Shown: in pieces, positions 2,254-14,646 of the stretch | Position numbering within the stretch: the stretch's first letter is position 1 | Layout: every line of letters begins with the position of its first letter | Virus record (IMG/VR): IMGVR_UViG_2718218127_000001 | DNA: 14,646 nucleotides | Source of the DNA: a virus | Lineage: Duplodnaviria > Heunggongvirae > Uroviricota > Caudoviricetes | Reading direction: 5' to 3' (one strand) | Program-made: the position numbers and the translations under genes | The notes under the pieces: generated by a model | What the model was told of the DNA's origin: nothing | What the model saw: only the letters and a program-made list of their open reading frames with translations | Databases searched by the model: none

Positions 2254-2279
2254 ACGCCCCGTGCGGGCGTTTTGCTTTT
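2254..2279 (+). terminator. putative rho-independent terminator on the plus strand
   Basis: Stem ACGCCC, loop CGTGC, stem GGGCGT, then TTTGCTTTT. The opposite strand has no U-tract. Confidence 0.35.
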
Positions 2280-2889
2280 ACAAAGTCAGGCCAATGCCTC
2301 TGGCTGCTTTCCCCGCCTTACGCTCAACCATGCCCGTGATTCTATCTACTACCGGACTGAATGCCTGCCAGTAAGCCACCTCCATTGCTGACAACTCTGC
2401 CCGCTTCCTGTCAAACGTAGCCCAGCGCATCCCCTTTGGTTTTGGGAACATGCGAATGTCATTAAACAGATTATTGGCAAGGTCATTGCTTCCCCATATC
2501 GCGCATCGCTGCTGGCGTATCTTCATTCGCATCCTGTCCAGTCTGTCGGCGCTCTGGCTTTTATAGTGGAGTTTCCAGCACGCCCGGCAGCCAATATCTT
2601 TCTTGCCGATATACAGCTTTGCAGCCCGTTTCATACAGTGGGGACAAACGTACCATTCCCGGACGCCATACCCGGCTTGTGTGGTCGTGGTTCTGATTGC
2701 CCGTGTAACGCCGTTGATTGTCATGGCGTAGCTGTCGGCTTGCCGGAAGGTATACAACGTTCCGCTTTCGGTCTGGGTATAAAGCTGCGTCCCCGGTTCG
2801 GCGTCCGCCAGCCTGCTACGCATGTTCGCAAGGAATGGCAACCCTATACGGGGCAGGTCGGTGATATAGCTGCGCGTTCTGTCTCTCAC
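2278..2889 (-). CDS. hypothetical Cys4 zinc-ribbon protein, 203 aa
   Basis: Track ORF. The start is GTG, preceded by a perfect AGGAGG 7 nt upstream. Contains CPHC-x14-CRAC (C-x2-C ... C-x2-C). Confidence 0.55.
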   Translation of the reverse strand: MRDRTRSYITDLPRIGLPFLANMRSRLADAEPGTQLYTQTESGTLYTFRQADSYAMTINGVTRAIRTTTTQAGYGVREWYVCPHCMKRAAKLYIGKKDIGCRACWKLHYKSQSADRLDRMRMKIRQQRCAIWGSNDLANNLFNDIRMFPKPKGMRWATFDRKRAELSAMEVAYWQAFSPVVDRITGMVERKAGKAARGIGLTL

Positions 2890-2992
2890 TGGCGGGCCTC
2901 CTGCGAATTACTGCGCATTAACTGCGAACGGTGCGCAAAAATGAATGCGAAATAATATGCGTATTTTACTGTAAATTGCGCACTATTTTGCG

Positions 2993-3110
2993 CACTGCGA
3001 ACCAATGGCGCGAGCCAGAATATTTTGGACTGCCTAAATCGAATATGGCTTCCAGCCCGCTACTGGCGCGGTTCTCTCTTCATATGGGCTTTGAGTCTGT
3101 CCAGTACAGT
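2993..3110. repeat. regulatory repeat block A (copy 1 of a duplicated ~80-110 bp module)
   Basis: Shares with block B a conserved stretch of the form ACCA-TGGCGCGA-CCAGAATATT-TGG ... CCTAAATC ... TTCCAGCC ... CTGGCGCGG, followed by a CTGT-N5-ACAG dyad (about 3097-3109). Preceded by several TGCGCA hexamers. Confidence 0.6.
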
Positions 3111-3143
3111 CCAGTATTTCAACATCGGTGACTATACGGATTG

Positions 3144-3521
3144 CTAACATGCGCCGTTTTTTTTAACCCTTCGCAGATCCCGCCTTGCTTGCATTGAAAC
3201 GGATCTCGCTAAACTCAGCTCAAGCCGTGCGATTCTGTCGGCATGTAGCCCCATGAGTCCGTTAATCAATGTCATCTCGCGCCATTCTTCTGTTCCCGGC
3301 GTCGGATTAGTCGCCAGTAATAGCCCGTATCTCTCAGCCATCATGAGGTTTCTTGCACGATTTCGCACCAGCGGAGAAAGCGCATCTTCTCCCTCAAACG
3401 GGAAGAATGCCCGCCTACTGCGTTCGCCATGTTTGACGGCATTAGTATTGCCCAACGGTGCGCCTGCGCCTTTCCGCTTGCCACCCCATCCGGATCTTGA
3501 TTGTTGGCTATTTTTTTTCAT
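3144..3521 (-). CDS. hypothetical basic protein, 125 aa; possible small-terminase-like or packaging-redirecting protein
   Basis: Track ORF with ATG start. The N-terminus GKRKGAGAPLGNTNAVKHG resembles motifs I associate with small terminase-type DNA-binding proteins; this is from memory and unverified. Confidence 0.5.
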   Translation of the reverse strand: MKKNSQQSRSGWGGKRKGAGAPLGNTNAVKHGERSRRAFFPFEGEDALSPLVRNRARNLMMAERYGLLLATNPTPGTEEWREMTLINGLMGLHADRIARLELSLARSVSMQARRDLRRVKKNGAC

Positions 3522-3575
3522 TTAACGGCTCACTGTGCGCAAAAACCCTAACTGAATGCGCGGTTTTGCTGCGTA

Positions 3576-3705
3576 CCTGACTGCGTACTGCGTACCAGTG
3601 GCGCGAACCAGAATATTCTGGACGACCTAAATCACGCTCTGGTTTCCAGCCCTCTGCTGGCGCGGGTTTAGCGCTACTTGGGTTTAAAATCTGTCAAGAA
3701 CAGTC
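3576..3705. repeat. regulatory repeat block B (copy 2), upstream of the 125-aa gene
   Basis: Contains the perfect 14-bp palindrome CCAGAATATTCTGG (about 3608-3621), a CTGTCAAGAACAG dyad (about 3691-3703) and CTGCGTAC repeats. It is the direct-repeat partner of block A. Confidence 0.6.
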
Positions 3706-3735
3706 TAGAATTTTAGCCTGCGTTCGGTGCGAACC

Positions 3736-4086
3736 TCACGGCACAGACGAGTACCAGTAAAAGCCTGTTAGCCCGGCATCGCAGCGCTCACGATTAAGCA
3801 CACGTGGCGGGTTTTCTCTGGTCATCAACTCAAGCAAGGCATTGCTTCCCTGCGTCTCCAGTCGGTATTGCCTGTCGGTAGTGGTAATGGCATCCGGCAA
3901 TAACTTTATGGCGGCCTGGCTAAAGTCTCGCGGTGCGCCGTAAAATTGCGCATCAACAATATGAACCACATCGCCGTTAATCGTTGTCCGATAACGGTCT
4001 GGCTGTATAGTAAAGCCCCCACAATGGATAGCAGATAGTGCCGGTGCCGATGAGATCAGGACGGCTGCCAGAATGTATGGCTTCAT
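3736..4086 (-). CDS. hypothetical secreted protein, 116 aa
   Basis: Track ORF with ATG start and GGTGGGTGA upstream. The N-terminus MKPYILAAVLISSAPALSA looks like a Sec signal peptide. Two Cys residues. Its start overlaps the upstream stop as ATGA. Confidence 0.55.
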   Translation of the reverse strand: MKPYILAAVLISSAPALSAIHCGGFTIQPDRYRTTINGDVVHIVDAQFYGAPRDFSQAAIKLLPDAITTTDRQYRLETQGSNALLELMTRENPPRVLNRERCDAGLTGFYWYSSVP

Positions 4087-4734: not shown

Positions 4735-5196
4735 TCAGAATGGCGTTTCATCGTCGAATGGTGGGCGTTGGTCAAAATCATCAGGGGTATTATATAACTC
4801 CCATCCCGGCGCGGATTGTGTTGTGTGGCCCCTGCTGGCTCCGCTTGCTTTGACTGATTCGGCCCGCTTCCCGCCGGGGCGTACCGTTCTGGCGCTGATC
4901 ACGCTGTCGGCTACTACCTGATAACCTTGCTGTGTACCGCCATCCTTGCCCGTCCACTGATTGATCTGCATCGCTCCGGCAACACTGACTAAATCGCCTT
5001 TAACGTGTCCTGCCAGTGCGTCGGCCTGTTTGCCGAATGCCACCACGCCCAGCCAGAAAGTAACCTCTCCGCCCTCTGCTGTATGGCAGGGCAGTGCCAC
5101 CGCTAACCGTCCCATTGCCATGCTTGTACCGTTCGTTGTGGTACGGGTCTGGGGATCTGCCACCAGCCGCCCGTATGCTGAAATTTGTGCTGTCAT
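4735..5196 (-). CDS. single-stranded DNA-binding protein (SSB-like OB fold with acidic C-terminal tail), 153 aa
   Basis: Track ORF with ATG start and GAGGAA upstream. The pattern W..VVAFGK.A......KG..V.V.G.....W....G......VV parallels the E. coli SSB core, and the C-terminus ...PPFDDETPF resembles the SSB ...DFDDDIPF tail. Confidence 0.65.
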   Translation of the reverse strand: MTAQISAYGRLVADPQTRTTTNGTSMAMGRLAVALPCHTAEGGEVTFWLGVVAFGKQADALAGHVKGDLVSVAGAMQINQWTGKDGGTQQGYQVVADSVISARTVRPGGKRAESVKASGASRGHTTQSAPGWELYNTPDDFDQRPPFDDETPF

Positions 5197-5495: not shown

Positions 5496-5548
5496 TGCCC
5501 ACCTCGTTATAAGCTACCCCCCCCATAGAATCTTTTTGGGGGTGTAAT

Positions 5549-5800
5549 ATCCCTACCAATCCCTACTAACTGGCTCAGGCCACGAATGGCAAGGCTTTCA
5601 GACTGGTAGACATTCAATTTTGTTGCCCTACATAACCCTACTTATCCCTACTAAATCACTTCAACGGCATTTTACTGCCTGTTTTATTTGGTAGGGATAA
5701 GTAGGGATAAGTAGGGATAAAAATATATATCCCTACCTAGTTTAAAGCCTTGCTACGTCTGGCCTCGTCTCGTTTTTAGTAGGGCAGTAGGGATAAGTGC
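5549..5800. repeat. iteron-type replication origin
   Basis: At least 11 copies of a TAGGGATAAG / CCCTAC core with 10-bp phasing: inverted-orientation copies near 5549-5566 and 5626-5651, three perfect tandem GTAGGGATAA units at 5691-5720, an AT-rich stretch AAAATATATAT, then further copies near 5731 and 5779-5796. Lies immediately 3' of the primase gene. Confidence 0.7.
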
Positions 5801-5813
5801 CGCCGTAAAAGTT

Positions 5814-8255
5814 TCAATCATCACTCTGCCCGCTCTCCACACCGTAAGCGCGTGGCATGAACTCCTCAGCCTTCTCGTTATAGCCAACGTTGGTTTGCGC
5901 TCTGCCGTTAATGCTTCTCGTCAGGTAGCTGGCTCGGTACTCTTTTGCTGCTGATTTTATGGCGCGTGAAAACTTATTGACGGAAAGCGGTTTACCCAAA
6001 CCGTGATACTCCATAAACGCCAGATAAAGATGATAAAGATACGTCCTCGGCTCTGGCTGGCCTGCCCATGTACCTCCGCCCATCATCATGCCTTTGGGTT
6101 CGTTCATGAAAAAAAGCGCCGCACACATATCGACAACCGGATCCGTGCCGCGTTTAACCTCTAGCGCCTCCTGCGAATCGCGCTGCTCTAGTAATAGTGC
6201 CTTTGCTTTGTTCTGGTCGGCAAAGGTGGTTAGCAGGTGGCGGATAATCACCGGGATTTCTCGCCTGATTTTTGCGGTTAAATCCGGGTCTTTGTCTGCG
6301 TCTGATACCGGGTTATTAAACGGGAATATCACGCGGCGGCGGGCAATGCCCCCGTTTCGCTCCGTGAATGTCATTGGCTCGTTATTGGTTGCCATAACAA
6401 CGGCATTTATCACGGTTGTGAACTGCTTTTCATATTTCCCATCAATCTCTACCGGATCGCCGCCCGTAATGGCTTTAATCCCCGCACCCTCTCCAACGTA
6501 GCGGGTCTGGTCAGGCATAATAATCAGGCTTTTCCCTACGAACTGCGCCCGTCCCCGTGCGGTGTCCAGCGTCATCATGCTACCGCTGGCGGTGTTGTGT
6601 TCACCTGCCAGCGTGGTTGCTATGCTGCTGAATACGGATTTCCCACTGCCGCCCTCGCCAGTTATCTCAATGAATAGCTGCCAGTCGTGACGCTTCGCCA
6701 GCACCATAAACAAGGCTGCTTTGATACGCTCGGCCTTATGATGGTCGCCAGCCGTTGCATGATTCAGCCAACGGGTAAAATTGGGGGCGCTGGTGGAAAT
6801 ATTCTCCCCCGGCGCTGGCGGGGTGTAGGTGATCCCATTGTGGTTCATCAGCCAGTTACCCGGCGAATGGGCGGAAAACGTCTGCGTAGCGAGGTCATAA
6901 ACGCCGTTATCAAAACCAATCAGATCCCCGCTCCGCTCACCAATTACCGGTATTTGCAGCTTCATGGTTGCGACAACCGATTTAATCCCTTTTTCGGTGT
7001 AGTGGGCTTCGTGCTCGTCGAAAATTGCCACCATAACCCTTTCTAATTCGCTGTCTGGTAGCTTCACCCATACGCCAGATTCGTAGCAGTAAACAGCGCC
7101 ACTATCAGGGTTGACCGCCAACATATCCCAGCGAGATGAAAGCAACCGCGCTTTCTGGCTGGCTGCCATTTGTGCAATATCTCCGACTTCGGCTTTACGG
7201 CGGGATTTACCGCCCACAATGGCCTGTAGTTGTGGTTTCACGGCTTCCCCCTGAATCTGGTACATCGAATCGTTAAACGCAGCCGTAGCGACTTCCAGCC
7301 CGTTTTGCTGGCGGTAGTCGTCCCAGTCGGCTTTGTAGTCTGTCGGCGGCAGCGCCACCCAGCCAGCCACGGATAAGGCGGCTTTCTCTGCGGCATCTTT
7401 GCCCGTGTTCGCCTGTTCGTCCTGCTGGTGGTCGTTATCTGCGGCAATGATAATTTGCGACTGCGGGTGTTTCCGGCGCATTACTCCGGCAACGTGGATC
7501 AGGTTCCCGGCGTCAATTGCCGCCACTGTAAGCGCGTCCGGGCGCATCAGGTGAACGGACAGGGCCGTCGCCAGCCCCTCGGCAATTAATACGCTCTGCG
7601 GCTGTTCTGGTGCGTTTACGGCGTGATATGCCCCGCGCTTTGCTGAACCTGTCAGGAGTCGCTTCTCTCCCTGCGGTGTAATGGTTTGCGCTGCTGCCAC
7701 TGCGCCGGATTCGTCCACCAGCTCCAGCAATAACGAACCATCCGGCATAACCGGATAGTTAAACCCGGTCAGCCCTTTTGATTGCAGGTAATCAGATTCT
7801 CCCTGTGTGGCACTCTGGCGCATTCCGGCATACAGACGGGCAAACGTAGCCCTTCGCTGCTCTGCATCCTCTGCTGCCTGTTTCTGGCGCTCCTGCTCAC
7901 GCTGCTGGCGGTCAGCTTCCAGTTGCTCTCTTCTATGGCTCGCTGCCACCGGGTCGGTTTGCGCTGCCCGGTAATCAATACCCAGCACATCAGCGGCAAG
8001 CTGTGCCGCCTCCGTAGTGTCGCAGTTGTTCACCTTCTTAATCAGGTCTAAACCGTCACCAGCGCCACACTGATTGCAGATAAAGCTACCGCGCCCGTTG
8101 TCGTCGAATCTGAAACGGTCTTTTCCACCACATGCAGGGCATGGAGAATGGCGGCGCGATGAATCAGGCACGTCGATAGACAATCCAGCCAGCACATAAG
8201 GCCAGCGCCCGGCGGCGGCACTGGTCACTTCGCGGATAAGGTCGATATTACGCAT
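5814..8255 (-). CDS. P4-alpha-like bifunctional DNA primase/helicase, 813 aa
   Basis: Track ORF with ATG start. N-terminal zinc ribbon CPACGGKDRFRFDD...FICNQCGAGDG, a central TOPRIM-like region, and a C-terminal NTPase with Walker A GEGGSGKS. Confidence 0.88.
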   Translation of the reverse strand: MRNIDLIREVTSAAAGRWPYVLAGLSIDVPDSSRRHSPCPACGGKDRFRFDDNGRGSFICNQCGAGDGLDLIKKVNNCDTTEAAQLAADVLGIDYRAAQTDPVAASHRREQLEADRQQREQERQKQAAEDAEQRRATFARLYAGMRQSATQGESDYLQSKGLTGFNYPVMPDGSLLLELVDESGAVAAAQTITPQGEKRLLTGSAKRGAYHAVNAPEQPQSVLIAEGLATALSVHLMRPDALTVAAIDAGNLIHVAGVMRRKHPQSQIIIAADNDHQQDEQANTGKDAAEKAALSVAGWVALPPTDYKADWDDYRQQNGLEVATAAFNDSMYQIQGEAVKPQLQAIVGGKSRRKAEVGDIAQMAASQKARLLSSRWDMLAVNPDSGAVYCYESGVWVKLPDSELERVMVAIFDEHEAHYTEKGIKSVVATMKLQIPVIGERSGDLIGFDNGVYDLATQTFSAHSPGNWLMNHNGITYTPPAPGENISTSAPNFTRWLNHATAGDHHKAERIKAALFMVLAKRHDWQLFIEITGEGGSGKSVFSSIATTLAGEHNTASGSMMTLDTARGRAQFVGKSLIIMPDQTRYVGEGAGIKAITGGDPVEIDGKYEKQFTTVINAVVMATNNEPMTFTERNGGIARRRVIFPFNNPVSDADKDPDLTAKIRREIPVIIRHLLTTFADQNKAKALLLEQRDSQEALEVKRGTDPVVDMCAALFFMNEPKGMMMGGGTWAGQPEPRTYLYHLYLAFMEYHGLGKPLSVNKFSRAIKSAAKEYRASYLTRSINGRAQTNVGYNEKAEEFMPRAYGVESGQSDD

Positions 8256-10182: not shown

Positions 10183-10221
10183 GTCACCGCCTGAGTTTCC
10201 ACGCTCTGAAATGGCGGTGAC
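10183..10221 (-). promoter_or_regulatory. stem-loop in the 5' leader of the replication-module operon
   Basis: Inverted repeat GTCACCGCC ... GGCGGTGAC (9-bp arms, about 21-nt loop). On the minus strand it is followed by TCCTT, which could pair with the AAGGAGG of the 63-aa gene. Confidence 0.3.
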
Positions 10222-10345
10222 GTTAGCAGGGGTGGAAATACCGGACACAAAGGAAACCGGCCTACGCGAACGTAGCCCCACTAACGCCACCATAGATACA
10301 GTACGGACGAGGCCGCTGATTTGATGTGCGTAGTGATCGGACACA

Positions 10346-10367
10346 AAAAAAGACGCTTTCGGCGTCT
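10346..10367 (-). terminator. putative rho-independent terminator on the minus strand
   Basis: Minus strand reads AGACGC-CGAAA-GCGTCT followed by TTTTTTT. It sits between the regulatory module and the replication module. Confidence 0.45.
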
Positions 10368-10654
10368 GTGTCGCCCTTAGTGTGTTCGGGTTTCCACGCC
10401 CGGTTGCTGATTTTGCAGCAACGCTTGGACTATAACAGCTTTTCTCTGCTAGGTGGTCATACCAGATAAAACCGTAACCCTTTAAGAGTTTTTCCTGTGC
10501 ACGGCTCACCATCTTTTTGTTGAGGGTAAGCGCCTCGCGTACTGGTAACGGAACTCCGGGCGCTGCGGTATCAATATCAGGTTTTGTAAGGTTGCAGATG
10601 TCAACTTTTGACAACATGCCAGCCAGATTAAAGGCTTCTTTCTGGGCGGCAGGT

Positions 10655-11675: not shown

Positions 11676-12110
11676 TTAGGCGGCGGTGAGATTGTCCGGG
11701 TATAGGTTGAGAATGTCGGCAATTTCAGGCTGAGAAAGTCCCTGATAGCCGCCAGCGTCGGCGTTATGGTTCACAAGCCGAATAACTTTCAGAACGTCAC
11801 CGCGCCCGGTAAAGCGATAGCGTAAATGTGACCCTATCCCGTCGGGGTTCTTTTCGTCTATACGCTCAAGCTGAATATCAAGCCTGCGCTCTAACTCACT
11901 GGCGTAGTTCCTTCCAGACGAAAGGCGGCAATAACGCAGAATGTCGTTTTCTGTCCATCCCTCTACGCCAGTACGCAGCATATAGACGCGGGCGCGGTGT
12001 TTCTTTGGGGTTCGCTTAGGTACTTGTACCGGGCTGGTGGTCGGCGTAATATCAGACGTGCGAATATCTGAGTTAGCCGCCTGCTGTACGGGGCGGTTTT
12101 TCTTTTTCAT
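11676..12110 (-). CDS. hypothetical basic protein, 144 aa
   Basis: Track ORF. Its ATG overlaps the alpA stop (TAATG), so it is translationally coupled to alpA. Confidence 0.5.
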   Translation of the reverse strand: MKKKNRPVQQAANSDIRTSDITPTTSPVQVPKRTPKKHRARVYMLRTGVEGWTENDILRYCRLSSGRNYASELERRLDIQLERIDEKNPDGIGSHLRYRFTGRGDVLKVIRLVNHNADAGGYQGLSQPEIADILNLYPDNLTAA

Positions 12111-12313
12111 TACGCCACCTTTCCCCGGCGCTCCGCCAGCCAGTTGTGAATATCAGCCGCATCAAAGGCGGTAATCTTCTCGCCCAGCTTTACCGGACGT
12201 GGTAGTGAACCGTTTCTTACTTTACGGTCGATGGTGGATACACTAACGCCCAGCAATTCAGCCAGGCGAAAGCGTCTGATATAGCCTTTTGTAGGGATAG
12301 TGTCGATGTTCAT
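12110..12313 (-). CDS. alpA: AlpA-family (Vis/excisionase-like) HTH transcriptional regulator, 67 aa
   Basis: Track ORF with ATG start and AAGAGG upstream. The helix-turn-helix LAELLGVSVSTIDRKVRNG and its small size and position next to a P4-type integrase are typical of AlpA/Vis. Confidence 0.72.
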   Translation of the reverse strand: MNIDTIPTKGYIRRFRLAELLGVSVSTIDRKVRNGSLPRPVKLGEKITAFDAADIHNWLAERRGKVA

Positions 12314-13271: not shown

Positions 13272-13386
13272 TGCGTCACCTTTCACGCTACGCCTTAATG
13301 AGCGATTGAGTCAGGCGGTAAGGCTTCCCGCTTTTCACCCCGTCGGGCTAGACTCAATCTGTCCTCTGATTCTTTACATATCTTGG

Positions 13387-14646
13387 TTACTTCGCCTTTC
13401 TCAGCGGTGTAACGTTGTATTCCTGCCCCTGTTCCAGTGCCACCAGCAATCCCGCCCACTGTGTTAACGCGGCCCGGCGTTCATCAAAGTATTGGTGGCG
13501 GTTATAGATACCCTCCACGCCTTTAATTTTGTGGTTGAGGCATCTTTCAGCCACTACGGGATCAACGCCCAGCGCGGCTAAATGGGTGCGGGCTGTGCGC
13601 CGGAAGTCGTGAATAGTGAAATTCGGCACGTCCGGCATTTCAGCGCGAACCTTAGCCAGTGCTACGGGTAAAGTGCTTTCCTGAATATGTGGGATCATGC
13701 GGTTTTGCATCTTTCTGGCTGGCAGTACCCATGCGCTGTTGCATGAGAACGTTTTAAGCTCTCTCAGCCATTCGACGGCTGGCGGTGCTAATGGAATGTC
13801 TATAGCGTCGCCGTTTTTGCTGCGTTCCTCTGGCAAGCGCCATACGGCTTTATCAAAATCGAACTCCTCCCAGCGGGCGGCGCATAACTCCATTTTGCGG
13901 ACGCATAACGCTAACAGTAATTTGAACGTGATTTCGTTCTGGCGACTGAATCCCTTAGCCGTGCGCATGGCTTTGAATAGCTGGATTAACTCATCGCGGG
14001 TTAACCAGCGGTCACGGGCAACTTCTTTCCCTCCAGCGTCGGCAACCTCAAAGGCTGAACACGGGTTAATCTCCAGTGCGTGCCGCTTAATGCCGTAGTC
14101 AAATATGCGGCGTGTCCAGCGCAGAACGTCCGTTGCTATGGTCGGCGCTCCACGGTCAACAATACCTTTCAGCATGTCATCGATATGGCGCGGCTTCACG
14201 TCCTCCACCTTCATGCTGCCAATGCAGGGGTTTATATCTTTGTCGATACGGCGGCGGAGTATATCGGGGTGCTTCCAGCGCGGAAGGATCTGACGCTCAA
14301 AGTATTCAGCGGCAAGCTCTGAAACGCGCATAGCGTTCTTCTCTGCTTCCATCTTCGCCAGTGCTTCGGTTTTGCGCCTCTGCTTCTCTCCTGCAACGTC
14401 ATAGCCCAGCGCAACGCGAGCCGATAGCTCTTTGGCTGTCTCTCTGGCCTTTGATAGTGATAGCTCGGCATATGAGCCAATCAGCATGGCGCGGGGTTTC
14501 CCTGCGAATTTATAGCGGAATCGCCAGACGGGGGTCTGGTAGTTTTCGCGGTATGAAAGATAAAGCCCGTTACCGTCAGAGCGTCCCTCGAATCGCTCCC
14601 CGGCCTTTATCCATGCGCGGATCTGCATGTCTGTGAGTTTTGGCAT
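13387..14646 (-). CDS. int: P4-type tyrosine integrase, 419 aa; start codon at the window edge
   Basis: Track ORF with ATG at 14644-14646. N-terminal arm-binding-like region (GLYLSYRENYQTPVWRFRYKF) and a C-terminal catalytic region with the HDFRRT...H..Y tyrosine-recombinase pattern. Confidence 0.9.
   Translation of the reverse strand: MPKLTDMQIRAWIKAGERFEGRSDGNGLYLSYRENYQTPVWRFRYKFAGKPRAMLIGSYAELSLSKARETAKELSARVALGYDVAGEKQRRKTEALAKMEAEKNAMRVSELAAEYFERQILPRWKHPDILRRRIDKDINPCIGSMKVEDVKPRHIDDMLKGIVDRGAPTIATDVLRWTRRIFDYGIKRHALEINPCSAFEVADAGGKEVARDRWLTRDELIQLFKAMRTAKGFSRQNEITFKLLLALCVRKMELCAARWEEFDFDKAVWRLPEERSKNGDAIDIPLAPPAVEWLRELKTFSCNSAWVLPARKMQNRMIPHIQESTLPVALAKVRAEMPDVPNFTIHDFRRTARTHLAALGVDPVVAERCLNHKIKGVEGIYNRHQYFDERRAALTQWAGLLVALEQGQEYNVTPLRKAK

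Follow-up and report, generated by a model that had tools for sequence, protein, structure and literature searches.

The window analysed here (the whole 14,646-nt stretch of IMG/VR record IMGVR_UViG_2718218127_000001) is, judged by its genes, a single mobile element, a P4/PICI-like phage satellite (PICI, phage-inducible chromosomal island). Two copies of a non-coding block lie in direct orientation around one of its distal genes: block B follows a gene for a 116-amino-acid (116-aa) protein and precedes a 125-aa gene, and block A follows the 125-aa gene and precedes a 203-aa gene. Each block runs into an array of short half-sites; the block is conserved among related islands in a fixed orientation and position, and a recombinant hybrid of the two copies occurs naturally. 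We give an even chance to the reading that the two blocks form a promoter/operator-type junction module in duplicate, with a putative oligomeric protein binding to the half-site arrays, as the arrangement and conservation of the sequence suggest. Related Escherichia coli loci carry matching annotations (Icd-like, AntA/AntB, P4-family primase, SSB and PerC genes), which indicates that the blocks belong to the distal region of a satellite of the P4/PICI-like type. The repeat and the genes around it, described like all of the anatomy below on the gene (minus) strand, are the following.

2986..3125, minus strand: block A core, a non-coding module starting ~20 nt past the stop codon of the 125-aa gene
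3579..3718, minus strand: block B core, a non-coding module starting directly past the stop of the 116-aa gene (nhmmer 192 bits; aligned with 20 other copies)
3144..3521, minus strand: 125-aa gene, between both blocks
2278..2889, minus strand: gene for the 203-aa zinc-ribbon protein, downstream of block A
2918-2941 and 3522-3545, minus strand: 24-bp repeat D3 (83% identical), beside the start codons of the 203-aa and 125-aa genes

The duplication had been described in an earlier note on this DNA as a shared stretch of ~80 bp. Pairwise alignment confirms a significant similarity and extends it: positions 2989-3040 align with 3582-3633 at 87% identity and 3046-3119 with 3640-3713 at 73%, and BLASTN returns 75.8% identity across 132 bp (E = 4e-21), so that the shared stretch is ~132 bp with one indel rather than ~80 bp. 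The local alignment score of 107 compares with 17.3 +/- 2.5 in 500 dinucleotide shuffles (z = 36). Identity between A and B across the core is 74-75%, and the mean column identity in the MAFFT alignment is 79%.

The module consists, in order, of a pair of tandem hexamers (S1), a constrained core of ~90 bp ending in GTCCAAAATATTCTGGTTCGCGCC and a half-site array of variable length that reaches the promoter-proximal region and ribosome-binding site of the downstream gene. S1, preceded by AAAT, has two hexamers 10 bp apart (NTGGAC-N4-NTKGAC); its forms are CTGGAC-TGTN- followed by CTGGAC, CTTGAC or CAGGAC, and one lineage has TAGTAC at both positions. The core reads AAAMCC, a variable 14 bp, CCGCGCCAG-N4-GGGCTGG and then GATTTAGG-NN-GTCCAAAATATTCTGGTTCGCGCCAYTGG.

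3693..3709, minus strand: S1 of block B, CTAGAC-TGTT-CTTGAC, which includes a TTGACA and overlaps the CTGT-N5-ACAG dyad
3099..3115, minus strand: S1 of block A, CTGGAC-TGTA-CTGGAC
3608..3621: perfect 14-bp palindrome CCAGAATATTCTGG, whose central AATATTC is conserved
3015..3028: one-mismatch copy of the palindrome, CCAGAATATTTTGG

Both symmetrical elements named in the earlier note are present in the window, the palindrome and its imperfect copy at the positions above and CTGT-N5-ACAG at 3097-3109 and 3691-3703 (35 and 33 bp past the upstream stop codons, where ~35 bp had been given), but neither is maintained as a dyad in homologous copies. ACAG is replaced by ACGG in ~40% of copies, and the site is better described as two tandem hexamers. 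The 14-bp palindrome, for which 0.03 matches are expected by chance, is perfect in just three of 68 copies; its commonest form has one mismatched pair, other forms have two or three, and no change is compensated. The conserved part at this position is AATATTC together with asymmetric flanks, and the dyad symmetry proposed as the target of a dimeric protein is thus not kept.

The hexamer clusters that had been noticed beside both blocks are found where claimed, as TNCGCA/TGCGNA clusters, and form two arrays of oriented (T)TCGCA/TGCGAA half-sites.

2890..3003, minus strand: array A, nine (T)NCGCA half-sites, from the block end to the Shine-Dalgarno sequence of the 203-aa gene
3522..3600, minus strand: array B, five NCGCA half-sites, in the stretch from block B to where the 125-aa gene starts

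All nine half-sites of array A lie on the gene strand at a spacing of 7-19 bp, and array B, in the leader of the 125-aa gene, is a shortened version of a ~236-bp leader present in relatives. The window holds 46 TNCGCA/TGCGNA sites, 15 of them in 2800-3000 and five in 3400-3600, and has no cluster of them elsewhere, the alpA/int control region included. Across 49 distinct arrays the density of CGCA is one per 37 bp, ~7 times that expected by chance, with the consensus aRTnCGCAGt and a strand bias of ~2:1. A perfect 12-bp palindrome, TGCGAATTCGCA, is located just downstream of the block in 28 island loci against ~0.2 expected, and relatives with a long spacer (up to ~550 bp) have one or two perfect copies 40-60 bp beyond the block. 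These palindromes lie at 3607-3618 in locus L049, at 3836-3847 and 3867-3878 in locus L165 and in 26 further loci; the window has none. At the 203-aa gene, the half-site arrays overlap both the Shine-Dalgarno sequence and the conserved -10 region. As operator candidates they therefore combine over-representation, clustering by promoters and perfect inverted repeats at the sequence level; the corresponding test centred on the 14-bp palindrome, for symmetry kept among homologous copies, gave a negative result. We know of no described operator that matches the TTCGCA/TGCGAA half-site. As a separate observation on reiterated motifs, a ~1-kb intergenic region upstream of a distant 125-aa homolog in Serratia fonticola (locus L169, 3470-3900) contains three of them in series: GGTACGCA five times, GGAAAC/GTTTCC five times and GGTCGGA four times.

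In total, 77 copies of the block were found in 56 loci, all co-oriented with their flanking genes. The block is present in 50 of 5,426 complete E. coli genomes, chromosomal every time and in one to four copies each, and also in genomes of Cedecea, Kluyvera, Enterobacter, Atlantibacter, Shimwellia, Kosakonia and Klebsiella, in four IMG/VR contigs and in 32 metagenome contigs. A first pattern scan of the genome collection was too loose, most of its 114 matches being chance occurrences in unrelated phyla. Among 50,697 phage records no match was obtained at E <= 1e-5 and only chance matches at E <= 10. A few small circular records with a plasmid label, which resemble excised islands, contain the block as well; two of these, L172 (NZ_CP033626.1, 22.9 kb) and L171 (NZ_CP146545.1, 17.8 kb), are labelled as non-mobilisable and look like excised members of this island family. 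In L172 a tape measure protein gene and a gene with an HGGxSTG domain lie just upstream of the block, and a portion of the record is duplicated, perhaps through an overlap in the assembly.

The position of the block relative to genes is equally regular. Homology starts 1-2 bp past the stop codon of the upstream gene, which is PerC, the 116-aa gene or the 125-aa gene, and the gene that follows (125-aa, 203-aa, DUF6979 or 61-aa) begins at a distance of 43 to ~660 bp. In about 21 loci a 125-aa gene is flanked by two copies, which lie 590-800 bp from each other. Third codon positions of the 203-aa gene are 54-58% identical in Kosakonia and Cedecea and 45% identical in Klebsiella, while the block core is still 84-87% identical, indicating either strong constraint on the block or a more recent exchange of it than of its neighbours. 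This constraint does not reflect a small protein-coding gene, which is ruled out because no frame is open on the gene strand, the one long frame on the plus strand is shifted in A relative to B, and three-base periodicity is absent from the block (variability by codon phase 0.126, 0.110 and 0.140).

The earlier note had also raised the possibility of recombination between the direct repeats, and a natural example was found. An island that lacks the 125-aa gene (locus L002) has a single block that is A-like beside the 203-family gene and B-like at its distal end, with the switch falling within the shared CTGCGnACCAnTGGCGCG. This A/B hybrid is the product expected of homologous exchange between direct repeats, and the copies therefore recombine. 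Other copies are mosaic (L038) or truncated past model position 108, and the 125-aa gene is present in some relatives and absent from others.

The proposal that the two regions are promoters built on one template is borne out in part. They are copies of one constrained non-coding module ahead of two co-oriented genes, but no gene-strand sigma-70-like promoter is conserved within the block, where most copies have CTGGAC, CAGGAC or TAGTAC in place of the TTGACA of S1, and the A/B homology does not include the candidate -10 box of the 203-aa gene.

2952..2957, minus strand: TATTAT, candidate -10 box of the 203-aa gene's own promoter, ~63 nt ahead of the GTG start

TATTAT is invariant in 25 of 25 distinct regions upstream of the 203-aa gene and is also kept in Serratia and Providencia relatives that lack the block (in Providencia as ATGACA-16-TATTAT); it is probably the -10 element of a proximal promoter of this gene. 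In the E. coli-type islands GTGCGCAA repeats are located at the -35 position of this putative promoter, and the predicted leader of the 203-aa gene has three or four units like UCGCAGUAA, the final one overlapping the Shine-Dalgarno sequence.

As a promoter/operator-type junction, the module would act as DNA ahead of the distal 125-aa and 203-aa genes of the island. A sequence-specific and probably oligomerising protein would occupy the half-site array and a second factor the core and hexamers, and the two would set how far the downstream gene is expressed: they would gate transcription that reads through from the upstream operon, or else govern a weak promoter of local position. The module would be duplicated because the 125-aa gene carries its own copy as a cassette, and homologous recombination between the direct copies would delete or insert that gene.

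Several observations weigh against this reading. Neither a consensus scan nor a position-weight-matrix scan of 49 distinct copies found a gene-strand sigma-70-like promoter in the block, with -35 and -10 hexamers 16-18 bp apart and conserved in position, and no terminator is predicted within it. In Klebsiella a lone S1 (TTCTGGACAGTTCTGGACGG; L165 4406-4431, also in L137 and L166) is found in a 57-bp gap between the gene for a 126-aa homolog of the flanked gene and a DUF2280 gene, just 13 bp ahead of the latter, which leaves no space for a promoter. One island has both the TAGTAC and the CTGGAC hexamer variants, which speaks against a single co-evolving binder encoded by the island. In Providencia and Serratia the TGCGNA arrays are located downstream of the 203-family gene, between convergent genes, a position that fits a simple operator role poorly. 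Finally, no binding protein emerged from the analysis, and nothing informative was matched by the structure models of the 203-aa and 125-aa proteins.

AlpA and a helper-phage late activator had been suggested as regulators of the modules, and neither suggestion is favoured by the sites that are present. AlpA activates its own promoter in EcCICFT073 (PMC6092414); it is judged an unlikely binder here because the alpA/int control region of the window has no CGCA cluster. The TGT-N12-ACA site of late activators of the Ogr/Delta type (P2/P4), which lies ~55 bp ahead of the transcription start, is absent from the blocks, its sole match in the window being at 10599-10616. Another candidate, a ribbon-helix-helix protein whose gene lies near the arrays in Serratia, Klebsiella and Providencia, was rejected, as its own promoter has a different repeat and the window lacks the gene. 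This gene (~140 aa) is on the opposite strand, and conserved ACAGT/ACTGT repeats lie in its own promoter region (L126 6540-6600, L127 6660-6710 and L129 7430-7470, in Providencia, Serratia and Klebsiella islands).

A second possibility, which we consider unlikely, is that block and array together form a satellite-specific cis-acting packaging recognition site (pac- or cosB-like) that would be read by the 125-aa or 203-aa island protein together with the helper terminase, the array then being similar to the R elements of small terminases. Genes immediately downstream of the module have small-terminase-like motifs: the N-terminus of the 125-aa product is basic and carries a short motif typical of small terminase subunits, its family weakly matches terminase-small-subunit profiles through GxPxGNxNAxKHG, 16 of 25 family members match phrog_1889, and in Klebsiella a DUF2280 gene follows the 125-aa homolog. 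However, the terminase-motif matches are weak (E ~1e-3 to 1e-4 across ~20 residues). Searches of the 203-aa and 125-aa proteins against Pfam, PHROGs, NCBIfam and PDB sequences produced only the weak terminase-small-subunit motif, in the 125-aa protein, and comparison of the latter with solved structures, including Rpp, gave no detectable similarity. No match to lambda cosN or P2 cos (GGGCGGCGACCT or GGCGAGGCGGGGAAAGCAC) was found in the window, and none in the blocks at up to three mismatches, so that the packaging site of the island is unaccounted for, a circumstance that favours a site of this kind. So do the fixed orientation of the block and its conservation above that of the neighbouring genes, and the Providencia and Serratia arrays, being near the 203-family gene and not upstream of it, suit a site-plus-binder pair better than an operator. 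Two packaging sites in one satellite have precedents in cos1/cos2 of EcCICFT073 and in SaPIbov4 (PMC6739421, PMC6092414). Two functional sites 600 bp apart would nevertheless make for awkward cutting of the genome, and the block has no similarity to any of the phage records searched, even at E <= 10. The 125-aa gene is missing from many islands with the block and the 203-aa gene from some, and the overlap of the arrays with the conserved -10 box and Shine-Dalgarno sequence is better explained by regulation. Slightly more doubtful still is the broader proposal that block and TTCGCA arrays are the packaging site of widespread enterobacterial PICI/P4-like satellites without a lambda or P2 cos, read by mini-terminase-like 125-aa and/or 203-aa families, with the copies serving as alternative sites as in EcCICFT073.

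The block could also contain a functional promoter on the plus strand.

3683..3711, plus strand: sigma-70-like site, TTTAAA-17-TAGAAT, overlapping S1/S2 and reading into the upstream gene in antisense

The core and arrays would then be the upstream regulatory region of a promoter TTTAAA-17-(C/T)AGAAT that overlaps the tandem hexamers, and its transcript would run into the 3' end of the upstream gene, damping the operon or blocking read-through. This is the sole sigma-70-like site in the blocks of the window and the only one whose location the position-weight-matrix scan found to be constant across most of the 49 distinct copies, and homology stops abruptly just past its -10 box, beside the upstream stop codon. 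The sequence that would be transcribed nevertheless varies by island (PerC, 116-aa or 125-aa gene), implying that there is no conserved RNA product; the -35 or -10 matches are poor in block A and in the TAGTAC variants, and the assignment is based solely on consensus matching within an AT-rich stretch. An antisense promoter therefore appears improbable.

That the block is instead a structured RNA transcribed with the operon, such as a small RNA, a leader or a put/nut-like antitermination element, is very improbable. Its location in a transcribed spacer between co-oriented genes is compatible with this role, a CCCGCG-N5-CGCGGG hairpin is possible in some copies and CUGU/ACGG could pair through G-U wobble. 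Against it, the blocks have no Rfam match at the gathering threshold or at E <= 10, and for 21 copies the RNAalifold consensus energy is -10.7 kcal/mol over ~200 nt, its covariation term is -0.34 and a single pair is compensated. Fold z-scores are not significant on either strand (-1.4 to +0.2), and the palindrome and hairpins are broken without compensation. A structured RNA family, whether in Rfam or new, was accordingly rejected for lack of a covariance-model match and of supporting covariation.

In P4, the crr element consists of two direct 120-bp repeats with replicase iterons downstream of the alpha gene, and it is an analogous replication role that we regard as the least credible: the window does have two direct repeats (~135 bp) downstream of a P4-type alpha primase gene, with short reiterated motifs beside them, but the blocks contain neither the iterons of the island's replicase, (T)ATCCCTAC, nor the P4 iteron TGTTCACC, and they occur with the unrelated replicases P4 alpha, DUF927 and DUF5906. 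In the window the TCCCTAC iterons are limited to 5550-5793 plus two stray sites. Directly downstream of the primase gene, at 5547-5798, ~11 iterons (T)ATCCCTAC(T) of 9-10 bp with a 10-bp period are arranged as two opposed sets around an AT-rich centre; this region is very probably the replication origin of the island.

The wider setting of the blocks is given by the remaining features of the window.

13387-14646: integrase gene, running past the right edge of the window
13292-13358: int-alpA RNA (Rfam match)
12110-12313: gene for an excisionase/AlpA-like protein
10346-10435: isrK/a1b1 partner of the C4 RNA (Rfam match)
10210-10297: C4 antisense RNA (Rfam match)
5814-8255: P4-type primase gene (813 aa)
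4735-5196: SSB gene

Past the SSB gene the order is 232-aa, 116-aa, 125-aa, 203-aa and 61-aa genes, and dinD (1-837) is probably chromosomal flank. The Rfam matches are to C4, its a1/b1 target, isrK and int-alpA; the island has a P1-type ImmI (c4/icd/ant) immunity region beside a P4-type primase. The genes of the window are all on the minus strand, with the exception of a 119-aa open reading frame on the plus strand near the island end (1269-1628). Its stretch RTLESMVAGGLLERV resembles a winged-helix motif by eye, with no Pfam match; the frame is conserved in relatives (88% identical in L001), and its product is a candidate DNA-binding regulator. In Dickeya and Klebsiella, anti-phage-type genes (GmrSD_N/DUF262, SocA_Panacea and Abi_2) adjoin the 203-family gene (L128 3869-4894; L129 972-1870 and 5927-6925), which suggests that this region is a hotspot for defence cargo.

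Duplicated control regions are familiar from phages and satellites, examples being OL/OR of lambda, the Psid and PLL late promoters of P4 and the arrays of cox boxes upstream of P4 PLL that are bound by P2 Cox. The present module resembles lambda OL/OR and P4 Psid/PLL in that a mobile element uses one template twice, ahead of two transcription units, and it resembles the cox-box arrays in its short, mostly co-oriented motifs beside a weak promoter, but the blocks differ from these regions in lacking TGT-N12-ACA and any detected gene-strand promoter. Operators of ribbon-helix-helix proteins, such as the heptads of the pSM19035 omega repressor, which are also centromere-like sites, and the met-boxes of MetJ, have a similar architecture, with variable numbers of short direct and inverted repeats spread over 100-500 bp and overlapping promoters. 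The difference is that the ribbon-helix-helix gene near the arrays in other genera has ACAGT/ACTGT and that the window has no such gene. EcCICFT073, with cos1/cos2 and an Rpp-specific cosB (PMC6739421, PMC6092414), is likewise a Gram-negative satellite with int, alpA and pri, and has two related cis sites near small genes resembling terminase small subunits, with repeats that could be binding elements; in contrast, the window has no lambda-type cosQ/cosN and its 125-aa protein has no detectable similarity to Rpp. The module is thus an uncharacterised member of a familiar kind of element.

Satellites of this family (int, alpA, P1-type c4/icd/ant immunity, primase and often PerC) are common in Enterobacterales and carry anti-phage genes, and the control of their distal genes and their packaging are so far undescribed. 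A non-coding module that is conserved across genera above the level of the neighbouring proteins provides a concrete handle on them. As a portable patch of homology for gene swapping, it accounts for part of the mosaic structure of the islands, and the factor that binds it, whether encoded by the island or by a helper, is likely to be a switch or recognition step of the late satellite cycle.

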